From the NCBI RefSeq assembly GCF_008189285.1, contig NZ_CP043315.1, forward strand, positions 1-32,000: a stretch of DNA of 32,000 bases. The letters run 5' to 3'. Of the stretch, positions 14,818 to 16,516 are shown in pieces (position 1 is the first letter of the stretch; each line of letters begins with the position of its first letter). Origin of the DNA: Candidatus Saccharimonadota bacterium (lineage in GTDB: Bacteria; Pseudomonadota; Alphaproteobacteria; CAJXXZ01; 1604HC). The translations under genes were made by a program, and so were the position numbers. The notes below the pieces were generated by a model that had not been told where the DNA came from, did not search any database, and saw only the letters and a program-made list of their open reading frames with translations.

Positions 14818-14848
14818 TTAATTTCTATTAACTTTAATTTCTATTAAC
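14818..14848. repeat. 15-bp perfect tandem duplication spanning the LRR gene stop codon
   Basis: ttaatttctattaac occurs at 14818-14832 and 14834-14848. The second copy is the stop codon plus the last four codons (VNRN*) of the minus-strand LRR gene. Confidence 0.85.
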
Positions 14849-16516
14849 ACGAACAGTGCATGTTTTTTCAACTGCAAGTTTGATTTCTCGATCTGCTATT
14901 AATTGACTGCATTCAATAGATTGCAATTTTCTTTCAGATGGAATTTGGATTATATTAATTTCCATCCCTGTTCCGATTAATTTTTCTAATTTTCCAGAAA
15001 GCTTTAATGTTATTTGTTTGTTAATTTGCTTACTCATATTGAAATACATAAGATGCTTAAATTGCGTTAAATCAAAGTTTGTGATTCCATTTCCTTCTAT
15101 CCATAAATGAGTTAAATGAGGAAACATTGCGTGCAATGATTTTAATATTATGCTTTGATCAGTAAGAATATTATGACTTATGCAAAGCCCTCCAATTGTT
15201 GGATAATAAAGTCCTTTTAATGATTCTGAAGTTAATTTATGCAATCTATTTCCTGTCATGAATAAAGATTGTATTCCATTCATCAATTTGCAAGGAGGGA
15301 GAGATTCAAGCTCATTAAATCCAACATTAACTTCTTTCAACCCTCCAATGCGCTCATCTTTGCTGCTCCACTCTTTAATTTCGCAGTTTATCAACCTTAT
15401 TATTTTTAGATTGTGCTCATTGTCTCCAAAATACCCAGCCTCATGCAGTTCAAGTCCAAGTCCTTCAAAAATTAAGCTTTTAGGTGCGCATCCAATTTCT
15501 CTTTTTGCAAAATCTAAAATAGATTTTACAGGAGCTCCATTGCTTCGGAAGAAAGTAAGGTGATTTACATCTCCTGAGTTAGGTAAGATTCCTTCGCATC
15601 TGTAGTAAATTGTTCGCATAATTCCACCTGATTTGCATAGATTTTTTATTTTTTCTTTTTCGTCTTGATCAGTTTGCGCTGCATATACAGAAAAATTAAT
15701 TTCTTGAGAATATAATGTGATTGCAGAATCTTGATTGTTAATATTATGCACATGACTTGCTATGGTATCTATGACAGAGCATATTTCTCTATCTTCAAAC
15801 AAATGAAAATTTCCATGTTTCATATCAATGCGATGTTTATTTATAGCTTTAATATAAAAGTTAATTTTCTTTTTTGTGTCCATATCAACTAATCGCTCAA
15901 GTATTGATTTGTATTCCCCTATGTGTTGTGCGAATTTTTCAATAAATTTATAATATTTATCCATTAAAGGCAAATAAGCAACTGTGCGAATGCTGAAAGG
16001 CTCAAGAGCGTTTCTATGGTATTCTAATGGGGTCATAAAAATTGTTGTTTTTGCTTTTTTTCTAATTTCCTCTAATTTTTCTATTTCTTCTTCTGTGTAT
16101 AAATCTTCTTCATTAGAAGTAAAGGGCCCAACAGAAGAATCGTGAGAGATTACTGAGTGTGATGGTGATTCTTTGATTGGATTGTCAGGCTCATCTTGAT
16201 CGCATGACTTGCTTGAAGAGTTAGCAAAATAGGACATTTGCTTGAATTTATTTGCAAATTCCTCCTCTTCTTTTTTTGTTTTCATTGCAGATGCATTAAT
16301 TCTCTTTAGATGCGATACAATTTCAGTGAGAGAGGCTATGCATTTCTCAAGTTCGAGGGCGGTTTGTTGAAAATTTTCGCTTCTTACCTCTTCATCATTT
16401 TTTGGGCTTGATTCATTGCATAGTGCGATAAGTGAACTTAAAGGTCTAGTTAAGTGATTTGTTGCATTAAAGTTGATGCAAATCAAACAGGATAAAATTT
16501 TAAGTAAAAGTTTCAT
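14834..16516 (-). CDS. Secreted leucine-rich-repeat (LRR) protein, function unknown
   Basis: Sec-type signal MKLLLKILSCLICINFNA. An acidic, coiled-coil-like region (EEEEF, TEEEIEKLEEIRKK) is followed by an uncharacterised middle region. At least 6-7 C-terminal LRRs are visible (LKEVNVGFNELESLP, IQSLFMTGNRLHKL, IGGLCISHNILTD, LTHLWIEGNGITNF, ...). Confidence 0.75.
   Translation of the reverse strand: MKLLLKILSCLICINFNATNHLTRPLSSLIALCNESSPKNDEEVRSENFQQTALELEKCIASLTEIVSHLKRINASAMKTKKEEEEFANKFKQMSYFANSSSKSCDQDEPDNPIKESPSHSVISHDSSVGPFTSNEEDLYTEEEIEKLEEIRKKAKTTIFMTPLEYHRNALEPFSIRTVAYLPLMDKYYKFIEKFAQHIGEYKSILERLVDMDTKKKINFYIKAINKHRIDMKHGNFHLFEDREICSVIDTIASHVHNINNQDSAITLYSQEINFSVYAAQTDQDEKEKIKNLCKSGGIMRTIYYRCEGILPNSGDVNHLTFFRSNGAPVKSILDFAKREIGCAPKSLIFEGLGLELHEAGYFGDNEHNLKIIRLINCEIKEWSSKDERIGGLKEVNVGFNELESLPPCKLMNGIQSLFMTGNRLHKLTSESLKGLYYPTIGGLCISHNILTDQSIILKSLHAMFPHLTHLWIEGNGITNFDLTQFKHLMYFNMSKQINKQITLKLSGKLEKLIGTGMEINIIQIPSERKLQSIECSQLIADREIKLAVEKTCTVRVNRN

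Follow-up and report, generated by a model that had tools for sequence, protein, structure and literature searches.

Leucine-rich repeat (LRR) proteins of intracellular bacteria commonly bind host proteins. Effectors and adhesins of this kind, such as YopM, IpaH/SspH (LRR plus NEL), the internalins and the GALA proteins of Ralstonia (F-box plus LRR), do so by means of a short-repeat solenoid. A second well-described group, the type II secretion system (T2SS) substrates of intracellular bacteria (e.g., those of the Legionella Lsp system), carry a Sec signal peptide and then pass as folded proteins through a secretin, driven by GspE, GspF and pseudopilins. T2SS substrates share no motif, and so membership of this group cannot be read from a sequence. 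The gene described here encodes a 560 amino acid (aa) LRR protein and lies next to a secretin gene in a stretch of 32,000 nucleotides (nt) of contig NZ_CP043315.1 (positions 1 to 32,000, forward strand), referred to below as the window. The gene is intact and native, its product ends in an LRR array and is otherwise an orphan, and it sits at a position where related genomes carry a recurring, variable gene. On balance, the product appears to be a lineage-specific, fast-diverging, probably Sec-exported LRR protein of a diplonemid endosymbiont, acting as a host-interaction factor and not as an enzyme.

We infer that the window comes from Ca. Cytomitobacter indipagum or a very close relative, a Holosporaceae endosymbiont that lives in the cytoplasm of a Diplonema species and has a genome of about 628 kb with about 30% guanine plus cytosine (GC). 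The ppx gene of the window has orthologues in Ca. Cytomitobacter primus (80% identity) and Ca. Nesciobacter abundans (50%), and the corresponding values for the secretin are 67% and 38%. The intracellular, host-associated setting that had been proposed from the DNA alone agrees with this lifestyle. According to a review, the bacteria are free in the host cytoplasm with no enclosing vacuole.

In kind, the protein comes closest to the LRR proteins that George et al. (bioRxiv 10.1101/719211) described from Cytomitobacter. In that study the endosymbiont genomes were shown to carry a reduced T2SS/type IV pilus (T4P) hybrid, LRR genes were found up- and downstream of type VI secretion system (T6SS) effectors and also "throughout" the genomes, no type III secretion system was found in Ca. 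C. indipagum, and a host-binding role of the LRR proteins was likewise favoured. The published counts (Table S1) are 22 LRR_8, 4 LRR_4 and 106 signal peptides for Ca. C. indipagum, 3 LRR_8, 4 LRR_4 and 60 signal peptides for Ca. C. primus, and no LRR_8 match for Ca. N. abundans. Proteins of this class are thus known already, and with 22 LRR_8 and 4 LRR_4 matches in the genome an LRR neighbour to the secretin is not very improbable. The window gene differs from the published examples in that those are tied to T6SS effector loci, whereas it has a secretin and no T6SS gene beside it, and outside the LRRs its product matches no other protein.

The other systems resemble it in part. Short-repeat LRRs are common to the window protein and to the YopM, IpaH, internalin and GALA group, but Pfam searches of its separate parts found neither a NEL domain nor any other domain besides LRRs at E values up to 10, no F-box in residues 1–345, and no internalin cap, IR domain or LPXTG motif was detected; its LRRs are C-terminal, while those of IpaH are N-terminal. 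As the defining domains are absent, it is not a protein of the IpaH/NEL, F-box/GALA or internalin type. Compared with Legionella Lsp, the same two-step logic is possible, but the machine is reduced: GspC, GspL and GspM were seen neither among the window genes nor among those published, and the secretin has a TPR lipoprotein domain with no Pfam match to N0–N3.

The LRR gene and its product

The features of the gene and its immediate surroundings are as follows.

14834..16516, minus strand: LRR-protein open reading frame (ORF), intact, ATG start, 560 aa, stop codon included
16454..16516, minus strand: candidate Sec-type signal peptide, residues 1–21 (n-region MK, h-region LLLKILSCLICINF, possible cleavage near NFNA↓T)
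16067..16399, minus strand: coiled-coil-like helical stretch, then a linker that is acidic, rich in Ser and probably disordered, residues 40–150 (from composition and a low-confidence model)
15572..16066, minus strand: orphan middle region, residues 151–315, predicted all-helical, no recognisable family
14867..15571, minus strand: LRR array, residues 316–550, five canonical repeats (370–490) with degenerate units on both sides
16523..16550, minus strand: promoter-like element (TTGATT at 16550–16545, 16-nt spacer, TAATTT at 16528–16523, 6 nt to the ATG)
14773..14797, plus strand: hairpin resembling a terminator, located between the convergent genes for the secretin and the LRR protein
14817..14848, strand not applicable: exact 16-nt tandem duplication (TTTAATTTCTATTAAC twice) with the LRR stop codon inside it

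The ORF is arranged tail-to-tail with the secretin gene (plus strand), as first annotated, with 299 nt between the two stop codons. At the base composition of the window (about 30% GC) a random frame meets a stop every 12 codons or so, and a stop-free run of 560 codons (1683 nt) has a probability of about 1.7e-22. The GC content of the gene (0.320) and that of its third codon positions (GC3, 0.242) are both within the range of neighbouring genes, so the gene is a resident one, and recent horizontal transfer was ruled out on these two measures.

The C-terminal LRR block had been recognised in the initial annotation and was borne out. Strict matches to LxxLxLxx[N/C]xL start at residues 370, 393, 415, 441 and 468, with a spacing of 22–27 residues, and at least five such matches were reached in none of 2000 shuffled sequences. 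Degenerate LRR-like units, judged by eye, stretch the array to about residues 316–550. Pfam LRR_4 scores 22.3 bits with the full-length protein, below the cut-off of 27, and 31.3 bits (E = 2.2e-7), above it, when the C-terminal 261 aa are scanned alone. By the Pfam criterion, the protein is a member of the LRR superfamily (the Pfam LRR clan). In the PDB, the top-scoring sequences are those of eukaryotic LRR proteins (RSU1 and the IGF-binding ALS), at non-significant E values of 0.15–0.3, and single-sequence AlphaFold2 modelling gave predicted local distance difference test (pLDDT) scores of 26–45 over the LRR region.

The remainder of the protein appears to be without relatives. A word-indexed search of the whole protein against 5.8 billion protein clusters returned only the protein itself, as did an exhaustive phmmer search of residues 1–375 against 1.84 billion representative proteins. 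A GTDB genome scan with the protein found no relative, and Pfam, NCBIfam and PDB sequence searches with the whole protein and with its three parts recovered the LRRs only. Residues 145–345 have no Pfam or PDB match even at E values up to 10 and none in NCBIfam. The middle region also shows no similarity to any gene at the same position in related genomes. By these searches the N-terminal two-thirds of the protein is an orphan. The motif-free middle had been put at about 200 aa; the absence of a family holds, but since degenerate LRR-like units begin at about residue 316, the part without a family is shorter (about 150–315, or some 165 residues). AlphaFold2 without an alignment gave low-confidence, all-helical models for the full-length protein (pLDDT 35) and for residues 145–345 (pLDDT 43).

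The acidic, coiled-coil-like segment noted previously was also found again. Aspartate and glutamate make up 27% of residues 80–150, and S, T, N and P a further 32%, while helices at residues 42–95 appear in the low-confidence AlphaFold model only. Residues 40–150 weakly resemble, in collinear order, the corresponding part of the secretin neighbour in Ca. C. primus, described below.

The N-terminus of the protein reads MKLLLKILSCLICINFNATNH and has a hydrophobic core of about 14 residues. Its 10-residue Kyte–Doolittle peak is 2.58, close to the exported proteins of the window (2.62–3.39; the secretin lipoprotein and TolC-like, RlpA-like and BamE-like proteins) and well above its soluble cytoplasmic enzymes (at most 1.65). 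Export of the protein by Sec is likely on these grounds, and cleavage of a signal peptide is plausible; of the cleavable-looking signal peptide annotated originally, the Sec-type N-terminus stands while the cleavage site is questionable. A lipoprotein reading of the motif ILSC (residues 7–10) was rejected, because the Cys is too near the N-terminus for a lipoprotein signal.

The TAATTT box lies only 6 nt from the ATG of the LRR gene, implying a leaderless or near-leaderless mRNA. TTGATT is found at exactly -34 from the start codon in five genes, namely the window LRR gene and four genes that follow the secretin in relatives (L001, 557 aa; L002, 115 and 787 aa; L003, 871 aa; listed below), and in these a TAnnnT box ends 5–6 nt 5′ of the start codon. 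Separate, leaderless-type transcripts are predicted from this arrangement. TTGA at -34 also occurs in the window upstream of the starts at 3334 (plus strand), 12189 (minus strand) and 29466 (plus strand), that is, in 4 of 22 window genes including the LRR gene, so it represents a general promoter layout and not a family mark. From this layout, mRNAs with no leader or almost none would seem to be common in the lineage.

At the other end of the gene, the hairpin at 14773–14797 is the sole terminator-like match in 3.7 kb, but shuffled sequences average 1.8 such matches, making it weak evidence for a terminator. The TTTAATTTCTATTAAC duplication adds further in-frame stops and leaves the LRR protein unchanged.

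The slot downstream of the secretin in related genomes

Secretin loci were compared in six Cytomitobacter-clade genomes (L001–L006) and in Ca. N. abundans (L012). In all six Cytomitobacter-clade loci uppP (BacA) is followed by the TPR-secretin gene, and the next gene is on the same strand, 108–143 nt downstream (33 nt in L006). The genes in this slot are listed below.

L001, Ca. C. primus: 557 aa LRR, then 334 aa LRR
L002, chromosome of a related metagenome-assembled genome (MAG; 619 kb): 115 aa, 787 aa LRR, 274 aa LRR
L003, MAG CP060235: 871 aa LRR
L004, related MAG chromosome (622 kb): 592 aa, no LRR
L005, metagenome contig (27 kb): 941 aa LRR
L006, MAG contig (149 kb): 410 aa, no LRR

The first slot gene is hypervariable, with no detectable relative beyond its own lineage in any of the six. 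LRR genes occupy the slot at four of the six loci, co-directional with the secretin, or at five loci when the window is counted. An N-terminal hydrophobic peak of 2.5–3.05 was found for four of the six first slot genes, and some slot genes have canonical cleavage sites (e.g., VWA↓G, LQA↓G). Among the slot genes, the peak is intermediate in L006 (2.20) and weak in L003 and L005 (about 1.5–1.6, inside the cytoplasmic range). A Ser/acidic-rich linker precedes the LRRs in most slot proteins. Five of the eight slot genes of relatives (in L001, L002 and L003) are preceded by a promoter-like element of their own, and these five could therefore be transcribed apart from the secretin gene. Such a recurring, variable and mostly LRR-encoding slot after the TPR-secretin was not found in the published accounts consulted.

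The initial annotation had asked whether homologues of the LRR gene accompany the secretin across genomes. A variable or LRR gene follows the secretin in the six relatives, but in Ca. N. abundans (L012, 5767–10170) the orthologous secretin gene, again after uppP, is followed directly by mutS and the slot is absent. Its absence there is consistent with the published lack of LRR_8 matches in that genome. Genes of a T6SS lie near the slot in only one of the six relatives, Ca. C. primus, where the likely counterpart of the window gene is about 3.4 kb from tssA (ImpA_N) and tssM (IcmF-related). The adjacency of LRR genes to the secretin is therefore more widely kept than their adjacency to the T6SS stressed by George et al.

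The block of valS, mutS, nth, dapB, uppP and the secretin gene is syntenic across relatives, and these genes have no functional link. Since unrelated housekeeping genes have kept their order, the adjacency of the slot may also be inherited, and the pairing of LRR and secretin genes may represent frozen gene order and not a functional linkage.

Several observations count against a host-interaction factor that is exported by Sec and belongs to this slot. With Phe at -3 and no AxA, the most plausible cleavage site, NFNA↓T, is non-canonical. The window gene has kept the slot position, but its strand is opposite and its spacer is 299 nt. It also lies at a synteny breakpoint: in relatives, ppx is found between the pseudopilin cluster plus T6SS genes and a block of MFS, Mnh, TolC-like and PepA genes, while in the window the ppx–pseudopilin pair is inverted with respect to the MFS–PepA block and is joined to the secretin block via the LRR gene. 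Finally, no catalytic domain was matched in the middle region by Pfam, NCBIfam or PDB searches, a null result that leaves room for the enzymatic activity suggested for it in the initial annotation.

Inverted repeats or conserved intergenic sequences marking the inversion breakpoints were also sought, and only chance-level, AT-rich matches were found. A 21-nt repeat of the secretin start, located at 14654, was considered as a remnant of an ancestral co-directional gene start and was rejected, having neither an open frame nor similarity.

Possible export routes and roles

The genes of the window that bear on a secretin-dependent route are the following.

12834..14534, plus strand: TPR-lipoprotein secretin (LAAGC lipobox, TPR domain, secretin C-domain)
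1..1449, plus strand: GspE/PilB-type ATPase, cut by the window edge
1456..2598, plus strand: GspF/PilC platform protein, from family searches
17933..18487, plus strand: pseudopilin-like protein, 184 aa, prepilin-type N-terminus KALSLLEVSFVLIIMS, divergent from ppx

The secretin matches Pfam Secretin at E = 1.9e-16, together with TPR matches and weak matches to PilQ, GspD and SctC; Pfam detected the secretin C-domain only, and no N0–N3 domain. The fusion of TPR and secretin domains is kept in eight relatives, always after uppP, with which the gene overlaps by 22 nt in the window. On sequence grounds, the TPR-secretin may be a self-piloting minimal secretin. Its TPR domain resembles T4P pilotins (weak PilW and NlpI-type matches). 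The pseudopilin gave BLASTP matches to pilin-like genes of relatives at E values of 5e-18 and 9e-16.

The following sequence of events can be proposed. The LRR gene would have a promoter of its own that yields a leaderless-type mRNA, and Sec would carry the product across the inner membrane. In the protein, a helical/acidic linker would be followed by an orphan helical module and then by a C-terminal LRR solenoid, the surface of which would most likely bind a protein of the host, or one of the bacterial envelope or surface. By analogy with known LRR proteins, binding of a host protein is moderately likely. The protein belongs to the expanded LRR repertoire already published for this genome. 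Its exit via the adjacent secretin is speculative; such a passage might be powered by the GspE/PilB, GspF/PilC and pseudopilin proteins encoded in the window, and as there is no vacuole, crossing of the outer membrane would deliver the protein to the host cytosol.

Taken further, this route would make the LRR protein a true substrate of the reduced T2SS/T4P-like machine, which is exported by Sec, folds in the periplasm and is pushed by a pseudopilin piston through the TPR-secretin into the host cytosol, with the slot serving as a conserved, diversifying cargo locus. This is possible but doubtful. The Sec-type N-terminus, the retention of E, F, pseudopilin and secretin genes in a genome of only 628 kb, and the recurrence of a variable gene after the secretin in six relatives (with an LRR at four loci, five including the window, and a T6SS near only one) all speak for it, as does a vacuole-free habitat in which secretion across the outer membrane reaches the host cytosol directly. 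However, synteny across the whole neighbourhood extends to unrelated genes, so that adjacency can be inherited, Ca. Nesciobacter has the secretin without the slot, slot genes have promoters of their own, and the gene is inverted in the window. In addition, GspC, GspL and GspM are missing from the window and from the published list, allowing a machine of the pilus or DNA-uptake type, and LRR genes are numerous in the genome.

A wider proposal, and a somewhat less probable one again, sees in the slot that follows the TPR-secretin a cargo locus which is conserved throughout the clade and diversifies fast. A minimal, self-piloted T2SS/T4P-type machine would be kept in genomes of about 600 kb mainly to deliver signal-peptide-bearing (mostly LRR) proteins to the host cytosol, each lineage having its own version under host-driven selection.

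The protein could instead stay in the envelope, as a periplasmic or outer-membrane-associated surface adhesin or scaffold that is not released, its LRRs binding bacterial or host surface components. Its Sec-type N-terminus is accompanied by no other recognisable secretion signal, the short hydrophobic segment and non-canonical cleavage site could leave a membrane tether, and the long acidic/Ser-rich linker resembles the stalks of surface proteins. On the other hand, a stable transmembrane anchor would need a longer h-region than the 14 or so residues present, and Pfam and NCBIfam searches with inspection of the N-terminus revealed neither a beta-barrel or autotransporter nor a usably placed lipobox or any other domain for anchoring. 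An envelope protein of this type is unlikely.

A T6SS-associated LRR protein whose position beside the secretin is incidental is very unlikely. Such an association has been proposed for the LRR genes that flank T6SS effectors in Cytomitobacter (bioRxiv 10.1101/719211), and the tssA/tssM genes near the Ca. C. primus counterpart fit such a role. Against this, no T6SS family is represented among the proteins of the 32-kb window, and the L002, L003 and L005 loci have a secretin-adjacent LRR gene but no T6SS gene. The N-terminus also fits poorly, since a T6SS normally loads its cargo from the cytoplasm, and such cargo lacks Sec signal peptides.

The least credible explanation is a decaying or functionless relic of the LRR expansion, open by chance or recently freed from selection: endosymbiont genomes accumulate such relics, and extreme divergence, orphan status, a rearrangement-breakpoint location and the 3′-end tandem duplication would all suit one, but an open frame of 1683 nt at 30% GC is very unlikely without selection, the gene retains a promoter-like element whose distance from the start codon is conserved, and the consensus positions of the LRRs have stayed regular.

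For the preferred reading, a probably Sec-exported host-interaction factor, the wider interest lies in the endosymbionts themselves, which have lost almost all of their metabolism yet retain secretion machinery and many LRR proteins. As a candidate pair, a minimal secretin machine and an adjoining, probably exported LRR protein, recurrent in five genomes, would offer a concrete entry to the question of how these bacteria hold on to or manipulate their diplonemid host. The LRR gene as it stands is one more orphan LRR protein gene in an LRR-rich genome.

Other features of the window

Relatives differ from the window in the pseudopilin genes beside ppx. In two of them (L026, 4114–7714, minus strand; L027, 5967–7630, minus strand) ppx adjoins a cluster of pseudopilin-like proteins, one of them small and one or two very large (329–566 aa, prepilin-type N-termini), which lies beside T6SS sheath genes. 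In the window (16647–18487) only the 184-aa pseudopilin is found beside ppx.

The GspE/GspF pair is followed directly, ahead of valS, by a gene for a 184-aa acidic protein (2783–3337, plus strand) with no Pfam or NCBIfam match, which may be an unrecognised component of the reduced type IV filament machine.

Between a small rpoZ-like ORF (6539..6760) and mutS is an interval of about 1.2 kb (6761–7936) with 24% GC and no ORF of 40 aa or more. The equivalent interval of the relative L003 carries a transketolase gene, and tblastn found no remnant of it in the window.

Genes for tRNA-Val(GAC) and tRNA-Lys(CTT) are located between the pseudopilin and MFS genes (18628–18864; MFS ORF 18807–20054). The first 19 or so codons of the 415-aa MFS ORF are tRNA-Lys read as protein, so its true start is further downstream.

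The longest ORF for dapB (11422–12189, minus strand) overlaps the start of uppP by 21 nt. The Pfam DapB_N match begins at residue 31, and the real start is probably the Met at that residue (MKLCIIGANG...).

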